From: a bacterium
GTDB taxonomy: Bacteria > Patescibacteriota > CPR2 > UBA1875 > CAIMLA01
Length of the DNA: 64,000 nucleotides
Assembly: GCA_037129835.1 (NCBI GenBank)
Contig: JBAXUE010000001.1
Coordinates: forward strand, 90,085-154,084
Direction: 5' to 3'
Part shown: positions 1,509 to 37,994 of the stretch, one piece after another
Layout of the letters: the number at the start of each line of letters is the position of its first letter
Position numbering within the stretch: the first letter of the stretch is position 1
The notes under the pieces: generated by a model
Databases searched by the model: none
Told to the model about the DNA's origin: nothing
What the model saw: the letters and a program-made list of their open reading frames with translations, nothing else
Program-made: the position numbers and the translations under genes

Positions 1509-2792
1509 ATGAAAAAACAATTTCTCTTAAGCCTAATCTTTATAGTTATTACTGTTATTCCAATCCACGTGTTTGCGGGATCAGAAAACCTAAAGATTGA
1601 AGAATTTAGGGTAGACGGTGTAACTACAAACGACGAATACGTAGTAATTGCCAACTATGGCACTGAGAGCATAGATATTAATTTATATTCACTAACCATC
1701 AAGACAAGCGCAACGACATATAGCTACCTATATAAATTTGGAATTGGTAGTTCTATAAAGCCTGGGGAACGAATACGAATTTGCCATAATTCAATAGCGG
1801 ACAAATCACTTTGTAATTTATTCAATACTTCTACTTCATATTCTATGAAGGAAAGTGGTGTTCTTGCTCTAGTTGATAATAGCAAGGGAACAAAGATAAA
1901 TATCGATATCGTTGGCTATGGCGAGTTAGATTATGGAGTGGGTGGGTGCTGGTCTACGGGTTGTGAAGAATATCCGCTAGACATGCCTGCTAAAAACACT
2001 CCTTATAAAAGGATTAACGGTCAAGATACAAATCGAGGGTATTTTGATTTTGAACCAGTTGTAATACTAGAATCCACTTATTCTGATCCGAACATTGATA
2101 AAATAGTTATCAGCGAGCTTATGCCGGCACCAGATAGTGAAGAAGAGTGGTTCGAACTTTATAACCAGGCCAGTTTACCAGTCTCACTTTCTGGAGTAAA
2201 AATTTGCGATGCAGTTGGTAGTATCCATTGCTATTATTTTGTCGAAACAGACCTTATGAAACCTTTTGAATACAAAACTTATTCACAGAGTACGACTAAA
2301 ATTACCTTGAATAATACCGGAGATTGGCTCGAACTCCGGGATGAAAATGATAATCTTTTGGCTGACAGTGGCGGAAATTACGGCAGAGCAGACTCTGCCA
2401 TTAGTCTTTCACTATTCGGAAATGATTTTAATTGGACTAAAACAGCGACTCCAAATGAGCAAAATATTTATACTGATACGGTTGAGATAGAAGAACCAAC
2501 AACAGTGGCACCGAAATCAACTTCTAAGAAAGTTAAGGCAGCCGTAGTAAAGAAAGCTTCTAGTGTCACTTCGGCAAGCGAGCCAAGTGAAGTTGCAGGC
2601 GCTAGTACGGTTTTGGCTGCTAAAAACGCGAAATCAGTTGCGGCCATACCAGTAAAGCCGGGGCTTAACGATAATAACTATGCCTATCTTCTATTCGCTT
2701 TGGCAATCCTAATCTTTCTGGGCTATAATCTTTGGGAAAGAAGGACCAATGTCAGAAACTTTTACTACAAAATCATCAGAAGAGACAGTTAA
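1509..2792 (+). CDS. secreted lamin-tail-domain (LTD) repeat protein with N-terminal signal peptide and C-terminal TM anchor
   Basis: Signal peptide (MKKQFLLSLIFIVITVIPIHVFA). Two LTD-like segments (EEFRVDG...YVVIANYG; ISELMPAPDSEEEWFELYN = classic LTD 'EWIELYN' motif). C-terminal hydrophobic stretch YLLFALAILIFLGY. Confidence 0.6.
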   Translation: MKKQFLLSLIFIVITVIPIHVFAGSENLKIEEFRVDGVTTNDEYVVIANYGTESIDINLYSLTIKTSATTYSYLYKFGIGSSIKPGERIRICHNSIADKSLCNLFNTSTSYSMKESGVLALVDNSKGTKINIDIVGYGELDYGVGGCWSTGCEEYPLDMPAKNTPYKRINGQDTNRGYFDFEPVVILESTYSDPNIDKIVISELMPAPDSEEEWFELYNQASLPVSLSGVKICDAVGSIHCYYFVETDLMKPFEYKTYSQSTTKITLNNTGDWLELRDENDNLLADSGGNYGRADSAISLSLFGNDFNWTKTATPNEQNIYTDTVEIEEPTTVAPKSTSKKVKAAVVKKASSVTSASEPSEVAGASTVLAAKNAKSVAAIPVKPGLNDNNYAYLLFALAILIFLGYNLWERRTNVRNFYYKIIRRDS

Positions 2793-3195
2793 TCTTGGCA
2801 AAAAGCTGGGCCAGAAGCTTCGTGGTGGGGAGGTAATCTTTCTTATCGGTGATCTTGGTGGTGGTAAAACTCAATTTGCCAAGGGAGTTGCCCTTGGTCT
2901 GGGAATAGTAGAAACGGTAGTAAGTCCAACGTTTACGATTGAAAGAATATACACTTCCCCTCGTCATTCCCGCGAAGGCGGGAATCTAGTCATGCACCAT
3001 TTCGATCTATATCGGCTCACGAATGATAGAGAAATAAACGAGGAAATCAAGGAAATCTCTGAAAGTGGTGTTGAGATTATGTTAATAGAGTGGCCAGAGA
3101 ATCTAGAGGGAATCCAGGGCCTCGCTACGACGAAAATACAGTTTGAACACATAGATGAAGATATTAGAAAGATAACTACTGAGGAGATAAAATGA
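2749..3195 (+). CDS. tsaE: tRNA threonylcarbamoyladenosine biosynthesis protein TsaE (YjeE P-loop ATPase)
   Basis: GDLGGGKTQFAKG Walker-A, SPTFTI...HFDLYRL TsaE signature; RBS AGAAGGA; overlaps upstream gene by 44 nt. Confidence 0.8.
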   Translation: MSETFTTKSSEETVNLGKKLGQKLRGGEVIFLIGDLGGGKTQFAKGVALGLGIVETVVSPTFTIERIYTSPRHSREGGNLVMHHFDLYRLTNDREINEEIKEISESGVEIMLIEWPENLEGIQGLATTKIQFEHIDEDIRKITTEEIK

Positions 3196-3599
3196 TTCTT
3201 GTAATAGATACAGCTGCAAACGATACTTCTCTCGGTCTTTGGTCAGAAAAGTGGTTAGCGACGGAAGAATTCACGGGTGGGCGAGAGCTAAATAGACTTA
3301 TTATTGAAAAAATAGATAATCTTTTCGTAAATACGAAAGCTAAGCCAGCAGATATTACGGGCATAATTGTAAATGCTGGACCTGGCTCCTTTACAGGCCT
3401 GCGCATCGGTATCTCAGTTGCGAATACATTTGCATATTCACTTGATATCCCAATTGTTGGTGTAAAAGAGCAGACTGAAGCTGAAAACCTTTTACAGAAT
3501 GGCCTTTCCATGCTAAAATCACGGGGCGCATCATTTGACGAGGTTGTTGTACCTCACTATGGTGCTGAACCTAATATTTCTATTCCCAAGAAGGGGTAA
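3192..3599 (+). CDS. tsaB: TsaB-like (YeaZ/inactive Kae1 paralogue), short 135-aa form
   Basis: MILVIDTAANDTSLGLW... N-terminal ASKHA fold typical of TsaB; directly coupled to tsaE (ATGA overlap); shorter than canonical ~220 aa. Confidence 0.6.
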   Translation: MILVIDTAANDTSLGLWSEKWLATEEFTGGRELNRLIIEKIDNLFVNTKAKPADITGIIVNAGPGSFTGLRIGISVANTFAYSLDIPIVGVKEQTEAENLLQNGLSMLKSRGASFDEVVVPHYGAEPNISIPKKG

Positions 3600-3610
3600 G
3601 GTGTTGCCAT

Positions 3611-3787
3611 ATGGCGACGAGACCCCCAAATGGGTTTCTGCAGTCTACCAGACGCCGTGCTACAAAGCTGGAGCGCGTTGCTCCAGAAATCAACCTGGTG
3701 AAATACCCAGTGAGTTATCTGTTTGTTCTTATTCGCAATGTCTGGCGTGAGCTAGACAAAAGTATCGAGGAGGGTAGTGCGAAATGA
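3611..3787 (+). CDS. small ORF A (58 aa) in GC-rich insert: MATRPPNGFLQSTRRRATKLERVAPEINLVKYPVSYLFVLIRNVWRELDKSIEEGSAK
   Basis: Hand-translated; below ORF-track size cut-off; stop TGA overlaps next ATG (ATGA coupling); AAGGGG/GGTG upstream. Confidence 0.3.
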   Translation: MATRPPNGFLQSTRRRATKLERVAPEINLVKYPVSYLFVLIRNVWRELDKSIEEGSAK

Positions 3788-3933
3788 GCACAACCGATGT
3801 ACGAATCAGGCAGGTTGTGAAGGCAAAATTCCTGCTTGAAGCTGTCGAGAGTCTCTCAGAAGTCCCTTGGTGGCGCTTTATTGAGCGTTCACGTCGCCTA
3901 GAAGGTGTATGGCTTCGCAGCTCTTCTGCGTAA
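3784..3933 (+). CDS. small ORF B (49 aa): MSTTDVRIRQVVKAKFLLEAVESLSEVPWWRFIERSRRLEGVWLRSSSA
   Basis: Strong SD GAGGAGGG 9 nt upstream of ATG; coupled to ORF A. Confidence 0.3.
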   Translation: MSTTDVRIRQVVKAKFLLEAVESLSEVPWWRFIERSRRLEGVWLRSSSA

Positions 3934-3979
3934 AACTATGCCGAAACCAGGCCCAGACAAACCAGGGAGGTGAAGACAG

Positions 3980-4186
3980 GTGGCTACTAATAGGCGCGAG
4001 GAAGCCCTCGTAAAGGCACAGGCTGAAATAGACGATTTCAGGGCTAATCATCCTGAGGAAGATTGGGGTCTGGACTCGGACTACGTGAGACGCCAGCAAT
4101 ACGAGAAAACCCATGAACGCATCGAGACGGTTCAGGGTCTCAGAAGTTGGTCACTCGGAGAGTCAACAAGGAGAAGTATCGGTTAA
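3980..4186 (+). CDS. small ORF C (68 aa, GTG start): MATNRREEALVKAQAEIDDFRANHPEEDWGLDSDYVRRQQYEKTHERIETVQGL...
   Basis: ORF track; SD AGGGAGG 8 nt upstream of GTG; charged helical composition; followed by intrinsic terminator. Confidence 0.35.
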   Translation: MATNRREEALVKAQAEIDDFRANHPEEDWGLDSDYVRRQQYEKTHERIETVQGLRSWSLGESTRRSIG

Positions 4187-4211
4187 CGGTCGAAAACCAC
4201 CAGCTTTAGGG

Positions 4212-4241
4212 CAACGGAGGGTTTCGGCCGTTGTTCTTTTT
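4212..4241 (+). terminator. intrinsic terminator (CAACGG-loop-CCGTTG + TTCTTTTT)
   Basis: Hairpin and T-run read directly; ends the tsaEB + GC-rich insert transcription unit. Confidence 0.6.
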
Positions 4242-4465
4242 AAGTCTTGTTTTTTTGTCTCGAAAGTCATATAATAATCCCGTAAACATAGAAATTAAAA
4301 CTAGTTGACATATATTCCAAAAAACCAAAAATTAATCTTAAATACATTAGAAAATAAAGAAATTTACTATAAAATTGAATAGATAAAACTCTTTTTTGGG
4401 AACATTTTTGGTTCTGTGCCAGCTTTTATGAAACTTACCCGTTATGGGAAAAGGAAGGAGATAAT

Positions 4466-5992
4466 ATGGAAGTAATTAGCATTATTATTGCGATTGCGGC
4501 TCTTGGTGCTGGCGGGATCGGTGGCTATGCTTATCGAAAAGTCCAGATATCAAAAGACGTAGAAAATGCAGAAGGCAAAGCAGAAAAAAAGATTTCTGAA
4601 GCTGAAGTAAAGGCAAAAGAAATTGTTATCGAGGCCAAGAATGAGGCTATTAAGATCGCTGAAGCGGCGAAACACGAAGAAAAAGAACGTCGTGACCAAT
4701 TTTCGGCAACAGAAAGAAGAGTCGCACAGCGTGAGGAAGCTCTCGATAAAAAAAGTGACGAGCTAGACAAGAAACGTGACGATATCGATAAGAATAAAGA
4801 AGAAATCGAAACTGTTAAGAACGATTTACGTGATCTTCGGGTCAAACAACAGGGAGCGCTTGAGAAAATATCAAAACTTACTAAAGATGAGGCCAAAGAC
4901 ACCCTTCTTAAAATGGTAGAAAAAGACTACAAAAAAGATATTGTTAGTTATATCAAAAAAGTTGAGATGGAAACCAAGGAAGAGGCTGACACTAAGGCCC
5001 GTGAGATTCTCGTTACCGCGATTCAACGTGTCGCAGGCGAGCAAACAGCTGAAAGTACAGTAACTTCAGTTGCTTTGCCTAATGACGAAATAAAAGGAAG
5101 AATTATCGGTCGAGAAGGACGAAATATACAAGCTATCGAAAAGGCGACTGGTTGTGACATTATTGTTGACGACACACCAGGGATGATTGTTATATCTGGC
5201 TTTGATCCAGTAAGACGCAATGTAGCCAAGGTAGCTCTAGAGAAACTTATTAAAGATGGTAGAATCCATCCAACCAAGATCGAAGAATCAGTGGCCAAGG
5301 CTCAAGAAGAGATAGATAAGCAGATCAAAGAAGCTGGCGAAAAAGCTGTTTATGAAGCTGGTGTAGCTGGACTTCCTGCTGAGATGATAAAGCTTCTTGG
5401 ACGCTTGAAGTTTAGAACTTCTTTTTCCCAAAATGTACTTCAACATTCAGTTGAAACAGCTCTTCTCGCAAGTGCGCTCGCAGGTGAGCTTGGTGCTGAT
5501 GTTGCTCTTGCTAAAAAGGCGGGGCTTCTCCATGACATTGGTAAGGCAGTGGACCAAGATATAGAGGGTTCTCATGCTACTATTTCTCGTGATATTTGTA
5601 GAAAATTTGGTATGAGTGACGAGATTGTTCATGCGGTAGAGGCACATCACGAAGAGGTTCCCTTCCGAACAGTTGAGGCAGTTATTATTCAAGTTTCTGA
5701 TGCTATTTCAGCTGGACGCCCAGGGGTTCGAAGAGACTCTTTGGATAATTATGTAAAGAGACTTACAGAGCTAGAAAATATTGCCAAAGGCTTCGATGGA
5801 GTAGAGAAGGTTTACGCAATCCAAGCAGGTAGAGAAGTGCGTGTCTTTGTAACGCCAGAGAAGATAGACGATCTTACGGCATTAAAACTTGCCAAGGATG
5901 TTGCGACCAAGATTGAGGCTGATCTGAAATATCCTGGGCAGATCAAGGTCAATGTTATCCGTGAAACCAGAGCAATCGAGTACGCAAAATAA
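4466..5992 (+). CDS. rny: ribonuclease Y (N-terminal TM, coiled coil, KH and HD domains)
   Basis: N-term TM IIAIAALGAGGIGGYAY, KH GRIIGREGRNIQAIE, HD HSVETALLASALAGELGAD...LLHDIGK; RBS GGAAGGAG. Confidence 0.9.
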   Translation: MEVISIIIAIAALGAGGIGGYAYRKVQISKDVENAEGKAEKKISEAEVKAKEIVIEAKNEAIKIAEAAKHEEKERRDQFSATERRVAQREEALDKKSDELDKKRDDIDKNKEEIETVKNDLRDLRVKQQGALEKISKLTKDEAKDTLLKMVEKDYKKDIVSYIKKVEMETKEEADTKAREILVTAIQRVAGEQTAESTVTSVALPNDEIKGRIIGREGRNIQAIEKATGCDIIVDDTPGMIVISGFDPVRRNVAKVALEKLIKDGRIHPTKIEESVAKAQEEIDKQIKEAGEKAVYEAGVAGLPAEMIKLLGRLKFRTSFSQNVLQHSVETALLASALAGELGADVALAKKAGLLHDIGKAVDQDIEGSHATISRDICRKFGMSDEIVHAVEAHHEEVPFRTVEAVIIQVSDAISAGRPGVRRDSLDNYVKRLTELENIAKGFDGVEKVYAIQAGREVRVFVTPEKIDDLTALKLAKDVATKIEADLKYPGQIKVNVIRETRAIEYAK

Positions 5993-6136
5993 CCCCTCCC
6001 GCCGTCATCCTGTCATCGACTCTGAGGTGAGCCTCATCGCTCAGACTCGAAGAGAGGAGCTAAGAAAGCTCACTTAGCGACGTGAGGATCTATAACTCTC
6101 GGCTTCTGCTCGAGACGACATAATAAAAGGAAAATT

Positions 6137-7535: not shown

Positions 7536-7611
7536 GCGGGTATAGTATAATGGCTTATTATGCGACCCTTCCAAGGTCGAGATAAGGGTTCGATCCCCTT
7601 TACCCGCTCCA
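7536..7611 (+). tRNA. tRNA-Gly (anticodon UCC), CCA encoded
   Basis: Hand-folded: acceptor GCGGGTA/TACCCGC, anticodon stem CGACC/GGTCG, loop CTTCCAA, T-arm AAGGG-TTCGATC-CCCTT, discriminator T + CCA. Confidence 0.7.
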
Positions 7612-7769
7612 CGTCAGCGCAAGCTGGCACATTTAGCAGATCCGCCAATTGTCGGACTGCACAAATATTTTCGCTACGCCTCCTTCCCAATAAATATCTA
7701 TCGATTTTTATTGGGTGGATATACGAACTTCCGCGACATTCGGAAGCTCGTTTCGGCATAGCCTCACGT

Positions 7770-7847
7770 GCGCCTATAGCTCAGTTGGATTAGAGCGTGT
7801 GGTTTCGGCCCACAAGGCCGGGGGTTCGAGTCCCTCTGGGCGCACCA
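7770..7847 (+). tRNA. tRNA-Arg (anticodon UCG), CCA encoded
   Basis: Acceptor GCGCCTA/TGGGCGC, D-arm GCTCAGTTGGATTAGAGC, anticodon stem TGTGG/CCACA, loop TTTCGGC, T-loop TTCGAGT. Confidence 0.65.
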
Positions 7848-8022
7848 CGTCAGAATAAACTGACAGCATTCATAATTTTACCAGTAAAATCAATTCCTGC
7901 TTCTCGTTATTCTTCCTTTCCGATCAAAAACATTATTTTTGATCGGTTTATCGACAAAACAGAAATATTTGTCGAAATAGATAAAGGAGGAATCGCGAAA
8001 AAATAACAGAAGATTCCGACGT

Positions 8023-8099
8023 GGTGGTCGTAGCTCAGCTGGTAGAGCTCCGGTTTGTGGTACCGGCGGTCGCGGGTTCGAGCCCCGTCGACCACCCCA
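8023..8099 (+). tRNA. tRNA-His (anticodon GUG) with genomically encoded G-1 and CCA
   Basis: Extra 5' G pairing with discriminator C (His identity element), acceptor GTGGTCG/CGACCAC, anticodon loop TTGTGGT. Confidence 0.75.
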
Positions 8100-36747: not shown

Positions 36748-36849
36748 GAACTACATAGTTTGGTAACATAGACAGTATTTATATTATTTAAATTGCTGCT
36801 TCTTGGCAGTGCATCTTTACAACCATCCATCTCTTGAAAGGGGGCGGAA

Positions 36850-37524
36850 ATGAAAGACTTTGAGGTTGCAGAACGACTTTACAGCGTCAATGGGCCTGAC
36901 GGGTCAGGGAAGACTATTTTCGTTCGGTACTTGGCAGCCGAAATGGCTTCAATTGCCCCCACGATAGTAGTCAAGCCTTCACTGTTCTCAGAGTCATCGG
37001 CGTCTCGGAGTATCGGAGATCTCTTCGCCAAAGACGTAGAGGTAAAGAAGGACAGTAGGGTACGGAATACCTACTTCCTTGAGACTCTCAGCGTCAACTA
37101 CCGAGACAGAGTCATTCCGTTGCTGGAGCAGGGTTACTGTGTAATCCTGGATTCATCGGAGATCCGGGATGTAGCTTTTACAAAGGATATCTCGGATGAG
37201 TTGGCTCACTCAGATACACTTGAGTGGGTTCAAAGCGGAAAGCTGACTCATCGAACAGTCGCGAAGCATCAAGTATTTCTCTACTCGGAAGCCGAAGATC
37301 TCTTTGCCAATATCCTTGCAAGAGGAGAGTTTGGCTATGGAGATCCAAGGAGCTTGGAAGAGGCAGAACGTCGTCTCTTGTGCTATCAGGAAGCCTTCAA
37401 GCTTTTCCGCTTGATGGCTCCCGAAGAAGTCAACTGGCACTATCTGGAAAATCCTCGAGTACTTAATTTCGAGGAACAGCTTCGGCTACTGAGCCGACGA
37501 GTTATCGAAGGAGCAAGCTCATGA
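36850..37524 (+). CDS. dNMP/thymidylate-kinase-like P-loop kinase (GC-rich cassette)
   Basis: NGPDGSGKT Walker A, ILDSSEIRD ~ DRY-lid region of dTMP kinases. Confidence 0.5.
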   Translation: MKDFEVAERLYSVNGPDGSGKTIFVRYLAAEMASIAPTIVVKPSLFSESSASRSIGDLFAKDVEVKKDSRVRNTYFLETLSVNYRDRVIPLLEQGYCVILDSSEIRDVAFTKDISDELAHSDTLEWVQSGKLTHRTVAKHQVFLYSEAEDLFANILARGEFGYGDPRSLEEAERRLLCYQEAFKLFRLMAPEEVNWHYLENPRVLNFEEQLRLLSRRVIEGASS

Positions 37525-37994
37525 ACAAAGCATCCAAGTACGGTCTCAACACAATTAGAAATCAACTTGAGGCCGAGAAGGTTCGCTTGGTTGCCATACG
37601 CGAGAGCAAAGCGCTCGCGGCGGGGGACCAAGACAGCTGGCATGACGAGCAGTTCAAGACAGAGATGCAGGAAGAGACGAAGTCTCTAGATAGCATCGGT
37701 CATCTCGAACAGCTGCTCGATTCCCTAAAGGAGCATCAACCAGATGGGAATGATGTCGTTGACATCGGACACTATGTCACCCTGTCTTTCCCCGAAAAGG
37801 GGGAGAAGACCTTTTGGGTTGATGGGGTTGTAGTCTCTGGTCTTGCCCACGACACGGTTACTGTGGAGAGTCCTATCGGCAAAGTCATAATCGGCTCAAG
37901 AAGAGGTCAGACAGCCACATACGTGGTAGGCACAAGCAGTGTCCAACTCCAGGTTGTCGACATCTTCCTTCCGGAAGATCTTCCACCGTTGTAG
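37521..37994 (+). CDS. GreA/GreB C-terminal-domain protein (Rnk-like regulator of nucleoside diphosphate kinase)
   Basis: C-terminal FKBP-like segment HYVTLSFPEKGEKTFWVDG...SPIGKVIIGSRRGQTATYVV aligns with the GreA C-domain; short coiled-coil N-terminus; ATGA-coupled to kinase. Confidence 0.5.
   Translation: MNKASKYGLNTIRNQLEAEKVRLVAIRESKALAAGDQDSWHDEQFKTEMQEETKSLDSIGHLEQLLDSLKEHQPDGNDVVDIGHYVTLSFPEKGEKTFWVDGVVVSGLAHDTVTVESPIGKVIIGSRRGQTATYVVGTSSVQLQVVDIFLPEDLPPL

Follow-up and report, generated by a model that had tools for sequence, protein, structure and literature searches.

Replacement-type flexible genomic islets are hypervariable loci that lie between core genes and are exchanged by homologous recombination in their flanks; O-antigen and capsule loci are examples. 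Here we examine the interval between the genes tsaB and rny in a 64-kb stretch of a Patescibacteria genome (the whole stretch is called the window, and all coordinates follow its numbering). This interval, or slot, holds three small open reading frames (ORF1, ORF2 and ORF3) and a terminator, and of the known kinds of locus it comes closest to a hypervariable islet of the replacement type, set between core genes. As in such islets, the flanks are conserved and syntenic (tsaE-tsaB upstream, rny-ymdB downstream), and close relatives carry unrelated content of deviant composition, with breakpoints within the conserved flanks. Unlike them, the slot is tiny (0.2-1.3 kb, with genes of 49-189 amino acids, aa), its cargo is promoterless and chained by translational coupling behind a conserved micro-protein, and it is not tied to surface-polysaccharide synthesis, as O-antigen and capsule loci are. 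We do not regard the slot as a new kind of genetic element; it is unusually small for its kind. A search of the literature found nothing relevant on a hypervariable locus of this sort in Saccharibacteria.

We consider it probable (at about 0.72) that the region is the recombination-exchanged, variable 3′ end of an operon of a Lamin-tail-domain (LTD) protein gene, tsaE and tsaB in a Saccharibacteria (Patescibacteria) genome, imported from another Saccharibacteria lineage. The donor would be a different lineage, richer in guanine plus cytosine (GC), and homologous recombination with a left breakpoint inside tsaB would have brought in the module together with the last third of tsaB, displacing a shorter native allele that consisted only of ORF1 and a simple terminator. 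The GC contrast would follow from import from such a lineage, and uptake would have been by natural transformation. Natural competence, with integration of DNA through homologous recombination, is described for Saccharibacteria (PMC10633639; preprint PMC10187176). The proposed replacement fits this reported competence, in a group in which gene flow has so far been hard to observe. It would be a recent exchange of ~850 bp between Patescibacteria lineages, at allelic level, documented here at near-isogenic resolution.

The tsaB-rny interval and a near-isogenic relative

Relatives are named by locus codes (L001-L059), and one of them, L040, is near-isogenic with the window. Identity between the two is 97-100% at 3109-3408 and 4309-4488 and 87-100% over rny. 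In tsaB (3192-3599, plus strand) it is 100% up to 3408 and then falls to 0.57-0.80 over 3409-3588, after which the sequences are unalignable until ~4270; blastn matches to L040 end at 3577 and restart at 4270 with 95.6% identity. Relative to L040, the recombinant tract covers ~3420-4269, or ~850 bp including the 3′ third of tsaB. L040 has instead, in a 461-nt spacer with a GC content of 0.45, an ORF1 of another type (type C, below) and a simple terminator. The original prediction for this DNA was of a GC-rich insert of 650 bp following the tsaB stop. A foreign tract does exist, but it exceeds that size and begins inside tsaB; its suggested foreign origin agrees with the deviant composition and with the different, shorter allele that L040 carries in place of this segment.

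Where identity to L040 falls inside tsaB, the window instead matches L048, L039 and L047, which represent more distant, GC-richer lineages. The 3′ end of tsaB and the 5′ end of ORF1 (3511-3636) are 82-87% identical to those of L048, L039 and L047, whose tsaB genes overall are only 58-62% identical to that of the window. The terminator of the window (4185-4240) is 87-91% identical to those of the same three loci. Breakpoints thus lie in the flanks, and the insert is phylogenetically incongruent.

Three small ORFs follow tsaB on the plus strand, each preceded by a Shine-Dalgarno sequence: ORF1 (3611-3787, 58 aa), ORF2 (3784-3933, 49 aa) and ORF3 (3980-4186, 68 aa, with a GTG start). The first two overlap by ATGA at 3784-3787. 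The translational coupling that had been proposed for them is supported, and at least two of the three ORFs are real genes. Codon log-odds by frame favour the annotated frames; this measure is biased by stops in the other frames and was not used as evidence.

The 600-nt segment starting at 3601 has a GC content of 0.512 versus a mean of 0.379 (standard deviation 0.043), which is ~+3.1 standard deviations and ranks second among all such segments of the window. GC is 0.50-0.52 throughout 3600-4200, and GC at third codon positions is 0.46-0.51 in ORF1, ORF2 and ORF3, compared with 0.32 ± 0.05 in 39 long ORFs of the window. Both measures deviate, in line with the compositional switch that had been noticed after tsaB.

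Across the relatives described below, modules are GC-richer than their host loci by 3.5-13 points in 13/13 loci. This excess extends to hosts at 0.43-0.47 and to the vertically conserved ORF1, and no sampled genome is as GC-rich as the modules. These features would also be consistent with GC-richness made locally, either because a recombination hot spot undergoes GC-biased gene conversion or because GC-rich codons or mRNA structure are selected for. We consider a local origin unlikely: the L040 allele is far less GC-rich (0.45) and unrelated in sequence, so the window allele would have arrived as a block rather than being built in place, and an ORF3 homologue in L059 has a host-like GC of 0.44.

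The slot in related loci

The comparison covers 13 distinct loci with LTD-tsaE-tsaB ... rny-ymdB synteny, all from Saccharibacteria or Patescibacteria. Scanning GTDB with Rny yielded four of the genomes and a metagenome scan one, and the rest were reached through tsaB homologues and contig look-ups. The tsaB-rny spacer is variable among them. ORF1 is followed directly by the terminator, with the slot empty, in L040, L054 and L003; in the other 10 loci, one to four ORFs (54-189 aa) separate the two. Flanking synteny is therefore combined with unrelated content in close relatives: among ~15 cargo genes, homology across loci was found in a single case, between the cargo of L046 and the last cargo gene of L002. 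Several cargo proteins contain CxxC pairs, and for ten of those encoded by relatives, Pfam, PADLOC and NCBIfam returned no significant match. The 189-aa ORF of L039 and the ORF3 family argue that the cargo does not consist of chance ORFs. The original prediction treated the three genes of the window as one module, which the relatives contradict, given that ORF1 stands alone in L040, L054 and L003 and that the ORF3 homologues of L058 and L059 are unaccompanied by ORF1 or ORF2.

More distant genomes are without ORF1; L050 has an empty 166-nt spacer, and the spacer of L053 is full of short repeats. In L053, several GTCATTCTGAGCGAAG-type hairpin repeats occupy the tsaB-rny spacer (3905-4330) in place of ORF1 and cargo. 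The rny-ymdB spacer of the window (5993-6136) is GC-rich and contains cgtcatcctgtcatcgac, and in L043, L046, L047 and L048 ymdB lies within a few bases of rny. Both kinds of spacer sequence look like small Patescibacteria repeat elements.

The slot of the window ends in an intrinsic terminator with a long composite hairpin (4184-4233, plus strand) and the U-run UUCUUUUU (4234-4241), with a minimum free energy (MFE) of -24.7 kcal/mol and z = -3.1. A terminator had been placed at 4212-4241; it is real and extends further, over 4184-4241. A simple terminator scanner misses this hairpin because its apical part is above the scanner's loop limit. The same architecture folds in nine other loci (10 in all; z = -3.0 to -6.3), and the array in cargo-bearing loci ends with a hairpin of the form ACGGUCG..A.CC ... 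GGGU..CGGCCGU and a U-run. The 15-bp basal stem is 88% paired and three pairs show compensatory changes; in L048, one base is gone from each stem arm and the hairpin is still fully paired. Two near-matches to the 3′ arm elsewhere in the window do not form hairpins.

The stable stem, the U-run and the position at the end of the unit, with a promoter-like region of rny next, are those of an intrinsic terminator, and we infer that it ends the tsaE-tsaB-ORF1-cargo transcript. Cargo and ORF1 would be co-transcribed with tsaB, the one indication of this being the absence of an intervening terminator. For each cargo gene, the preceding ORF ends in or overlaps the Shine-Dalgarno sequence. Upstream of rny, within 4263-4465, several elements are kept across the Saccharibacteria loci, namely a TATAAT followed by AAACTAGTTGACA and an extended leader rich in AT; the motif CCAGCTTTTATGAAA lies at ~4418-4434, 30-50 nt ahead of the rny start. 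These elements could be the rny promoter and leader.

A structured non-coding RNA with fortuitous ORFs had been named as another possibility, and it would suit a GC-rich region in an AT-rich genome, the folding of the plus strand over 3595-4250 (MFE z = -2.8) and a 3′ hairpin conserved with covariation; the minus strand folds about as well as shuffled sequence (z = -1.2). The 13 related loci settle the question of RNA or protein, and we reject such an RNA as extremely improbable. Conserved structure and covariation are limited to the terminator with its U-run, the middle of the region is unconserved between relatives, and no frame-breaking indels with conserved structure were seen in them. Synonymous changes dominate in ORF1 and ORF3, where selection acts at the protein level and arginine codon families switch. 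Neither the whole window nor 3400-4500 (taken to E <= 10) gave anything relevant when scanned against Rfam; in 3400-4500 nothing passed the gathering threshold or reached E <= 1, and two matches at E = 2.3 and 7.9 were at chance level.

The slot has several features of integron cassette arrays: unrelated small ORFs without promoters are stacked after one fixed expression signal, imperfect hairpins are conserved on the 3′ side and, in L046 and L002, a hairpin travels with a cargo gene. Unlike integrons, the slot has one conserved hairpin per array rather than one per cassette, and this hairpin is a terminator, not an attC site, because a U-run follows it. The attC consensus is RYYYAAC ... GTTRRRY, whereas the AAC-ending heptamer in the window is GGTTAAC and its 3′ flank is GTTGTTC. 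No IntI or other integrase gene is among the neighbours within ~4 kb in each direction, the part of the 64-kb window that was covered for recombinases, and the boundaries of exchange are homologous flanks, not a recombination point. We found no evidence of site-specific recombination.

Another hairpin, GGUGGC-ACCGCG(G)A(A)-GCCACC, occurs beside cargo genes in L046 (4075-4093), L043 (4493-4513), L004 (3464-3484) and L002 (3513-3532), the last with compensatory stem changes; the window is without any copy. This hairpin precedes the one cargo family common to L046 and L002, and it may mark a cassette boundary.

Phage "morons" are extra genes of deviant GC inserted between conserved genes. The slot likewise contains compositionally deviant extra genes between conserved neighbours with a terminator at the end, and differs in its chromosomal, non-phage context, in being without its own promoter and in that no phage homologues were found. 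Cargo derived from a phage or plasmid, as a moron-like accretion or the remnant of an integrated element, would account for the foreign composition, for small orphan genes typical of mobile-element dark matter, and for the ORF3 homologue found elsewhere, in a GC-rich islet that has a terminator of its own. We nevertheless judge this quite improbable. There is no significant PHROGs match, and neither IMG/VR (searched for ORF1, ORF2, ORF3 and four other cargo genes) nor INPHARED phages (tblastn, blastn) nor PLSDB plasmids contained a relative, in collections in which Patescibacteria phages are under-sampled and poorly represented. The window has no att-like direct repeats, no integrase was found in the range given above, and the breakpoints lie in homologous flanks with no discrete insertion site. 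No part of the region is copied elsewhere in the window, hence there is no element resembling a diversity-generating retroelement or a miniature inverted-repeat transposable element, nor a duplicated element.

Several points weigh against import by recombination from another Saccharibacteria lineage. No donor was found, and 3647-3939 and 3977-4184 match nothing sampled, in a sampling limited to 13 distinct loci. Transfer from sampled lineages alone cannot account for the GC excess of the modules over every sampled host; either the ultimate gene pool is GC-richer than any sampled genome, or a recombination-linked GC bias contributes. Promoter-like matches lie inside the 3′ end of tsaB, at 3491-3519 and 3535-3563. 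ORF2, for which there is no homologue, may be untranslated or may be a fragment from a mosaic junction near 3935-3940. Family and structure searches with ORF1, ORF2 and ORF3 were all negative, and no function is assignable.

ORF1, ORF2 and ORF3

Homologues of ORF1 lie directly 3′ of tsaB in the 13 distinct loci and start 10-70 nt past the tsaB stop. ORF1 is found in every locus with a tsaB at least ~56% identical to that of the window, and also in L003 (49%). In the window its Shine-Dalgarno region, AAGGGGTAAGGTG (3592-3604, plus strand), overlaps the last tsaB codons and the tsaB stop, so translation of ORF1 is coupled to that of tsaB; this region is almost invariant in L001, L002, L004, L039, L046, L047 and L048. 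Changes within the family are dominated by third codon positions, the ratio of nonsynonymous to synonymous substitution (NG86 dN/dS) is 0.18-0.47, and the codons of conserved arginines switch between AGA and CGT or AGG among relatives. These three lines of evidence identify ORF1 as a real gene.

ORF1 proteins are 52-65 aa long. In that of the window, a basic motif at the N-terminus (PxGF..S.RRR..LE) precedes a hydrophobic helix, and the motif common to the family is P-x-G-[FLM]-[LVI]-x-[SG]-[AC]-R-R-R-S-x-x-L-E. Every member has a hydrophobic segment at the same position, ~27-41 (up to ~45), with a maximum Kyte-Doolittle value of 1.5-2.9 over a 15-residue window, and a basic tail. Three types can be distinguished: type A, with an end ...WREL..., in the window, L001, L002 and L004; type B, ending in RPKPDPDxPGR, in L039, L046, L047 and L048; and type C, with a clear transmembrane helix and a WW motif, in L040, L054 and L003. 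ORF1 probably encodes a membrane-anchored micro-protein. Our best guess is a conserved membrane-associated micro-protein, co-expressed with TsaB, that would act independently of the cargo, since ORF1 occurs alone in some loci. A word-indexed homologue search with ORF1 recovered the query alone because the homologues share no 5-residue words, and a metagenome scan with the ORF1 alignment returned a single locus, L039. We also considered by inspection whether ORF1 is prepilin-like: no hydrophobic stretch comes after its "NGF" motif and position +5 is not Glu, and this candidate was rejected.

With its short length, basic N-terminus and single hydrophobic helix, ORF1 resembles type I toxins and other small membrane proteins of fewer than 65 aa, and the small hydrophobic peptide of a type I toxin-antitoxin system does have a counterpart in the ORF1 family. 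One could picture a toxin-antitoxin or abortive-infection defence unit in which ORF1 is a small membrane-disrupting effector or type I-like toxin and ORF2 and ORF3 act as its partner, sensor or antitoxin. The small size and translational coupling of the genes would suit such a unit, as would the hypervariability and horizontal exchange of the locus, both frequent in defence islets. We find such a unit quite improbable. All genomes of the subclade have ORF1, and in three of them it stands alone without a partner. Its conservation, its coupling to the housekeeping gene tsaB and its ordinary purifying selection set it apart from type I toxins, and ORF3 homologues occur without it. ORF1 has no sequence similarity to any described family in Pfam and NCBIfam searches, and the minus strand, with folding no better than that of shuffled sequence (z = -1.2), gave no evidence of the antisense RNA of a type I system. 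For a type II system, no toxin or antitoxin domain was found in Pfam, NCBIfam or PADLOC or, with the ORF3 profile, against PDB or by Foldseek, and the partners do not co-occur as a unit, ORF2 being nowhere else among the loci examined.

A toxin-antitoxin, phage-derived or bacteriocin-immunity module, as the original prediction proposed, has thus found no backing in any collection searched. ORF1, ORF2, ORF3 and an antisense 78-aa ORF gave no significant match to Pfam, PHROGs, PADLOC or NCBIfam, and the searches of IMG/VR, INPHARED and PLSDB were negative as described. The neighbours are genes for the LTD protein, tsaE, tsaB, rny, ymdB and HU, and no match to a bacteriocin family was found.

ORF2 is a 49-aa orphan and the sole open frame spanning 3784-3933. 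Its Shine-Dalgarno sequence, GAGGAGGG (3767-3774, plus strand), lies within the 3′ end of ORF1, and (G)AGGAG(G) stands at the same position of the ORF1 end in L001, L002 and L004, before an unrelated next gene in each. Neither the 59 fetched loci nor viral contigs contained a homologue; ORF2 is called as a gene on two public contigs only and is a singleton cluster in the protein collection. The open frame, the ATGA overlap and the Shine-Dalgarno sequence speak for ORF2 as a translated gene, and its coding status is unproven. A second ORF1 copy, decayed and read in another frame, was considered as the source of the ORF2 region and rejected, as only a 12-residue tail matches.

This tail is a remnant of the C-terminal end of a type-B ORF1 (3940-3976, plus strand), with MPKPGPDKPGR* at 3948-3973. 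Over its 37 nt, blastn finds 78-81% identity to the ORF1 tails of L048, L039 and L047, and a hidden Markov model of type-B ORF1 matches the window at these 12 residues only (9.8 bits). The remnant shares its reading frame with ORF1 and ORF3, and its codons CCAGGGAGG (3962-3970) contain the ORF3 Shine-Dalgarno sequence, GGGAGG, at 3965-3970. Similarly, the tail codons of type-B ORF1, AAG CCA GGG AGG (KPGR), double as the Shine-Dalgarno sequence of the next gene. This second ORF1 tail ahead of ORF3 shows that the allele proposed to be imported is itself a mosaic: its first part is a type-A-like ORF1 with ORF2, and its second part a tail of type B, ORF3 and a terminator of type B.

ORF3 belongs to a small uncharacterised family of helical hairpins. 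When 1.84 billion representatives were searched exhaustively with HMMER, homologues came from four clusters (P0124-P0127, 64-80 aa, E = 2e-7 to 4e-4) and one further match, a repetitive protein, that is spurious; a profile search added a variant, P0128, that is 88% identical. The family core is L[DG]S..[VF]R..QY.KT.ERIE.VQ.LRAWSLG. Within the family, the proportion of synonymous differences (pS) is 0.75-0.90 versus 0.39-0.46 for nonsynonymous differences (pN), which shows ORF3 to be coding and under protein-level purifying selection. The AlphaFold2 model is a two-helix hairpin (pLDDT 86.7), and neither profile searches against PDB sequences nor Foldseek against PDB gave a meaningful match.

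Two ORF3 homologues could be placed (L058 and L059), both away from tsaB-rny. One lies between pgm and a Mur ligase gene in a GC-rich islet of its own (0.55-0.63 vs 0.43) with its own terminator, and the other lies between mnmA and alaS, with host-like GC. These other genomic contexts indicate that ORF3 is a real, dispersed and presumably mobile small gene.

Possible use of the slot and neighbouring sequence

The cargo may consist of accessory proteins under diversifying or frequency-dependent selection, with roles in defence, competition or host interaction, a suggestion that we make with low confidence. It is a speculative and on balance unlikely extension that the tsaB-rny interval is a dedicated, recombinase-free cassette-exchange slot of naturally competent Saccharibacteria. 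If so, the ORF1 gene would be a universal docking site whose last codons, KPGR (CCAGGGAGG) or GAGGAGG, provide the ribosome-binding site for the next gene, and the conserved long hairpin terminator would be the downstream homology arm. Promoterless small genes from a GC-rich pool common to several lineages could then be swapped in and expressed at once. Functionally this would be the analogue of an integron, with homologous recombination and translational coupling as its only components. The cargo would in that case be membrane-proximal effectors for interaction with the host (Actinobacteria) or for defence, acting with ORF1.

Aside from this extension, the analysis defines two uncharacterised small-protein families, ORF1, encoded right after the t6A gene tsaB, and ORF3, both partly missed by standard annotation. 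Being compact and hypervariable, the slot is tractable for asking what accessory micro-proteins do in an epibiotic bacterium.

TsaB (YeaZ) of model bacteria is ~230 aa long. The tsaB gene of the window encodes a short form of 135 aa (Pfam TsaD, E = 1.2e-15). It had been remarked on as short, and it is, although this is the usual form in the clade: the tsaB homologues listed are mostly 127-146 aa, with a range of 108-172. Clade TsaB corresponds approximately to the N-terminal domain of full-length TsaB/YeaZ, and ORF1 is always translationally coupled to tsaB.

Upstream of tsaB are tsaE (2749-3195) and the LTD protein gene. A second mosaic patch relative to L040 lies inside tsaE, at 2869-3048 (identity 0.55-0.77). 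This patch has a 7-aa in-frame insertion, TSPRHSR, encoded by the GC-rich hairpin cgtcattcccgcgaaggcgggaatc, which resembles short repeats in other Patescibacteria spacers. On the other side, rny (4466-5992; Pfam RNase_Y_N/KH/HD) is followed by ymdB and the HU gene, for which gene calls were taken from the syntenic relative L040. Three tRNA genes (Gly-TCC, Arg-TCG and His-GTG) are clustered at 7536-8099, just downstream of the HU gene. The only other stretch of the window that is equally GC-rich (0.49-0.51) is at ~36800-37900; it contains a weak thymidylate-kinase-like ORF (36850-37524) and a GreA/GreB-like ORF (37521-37994), and may be another imported segment.

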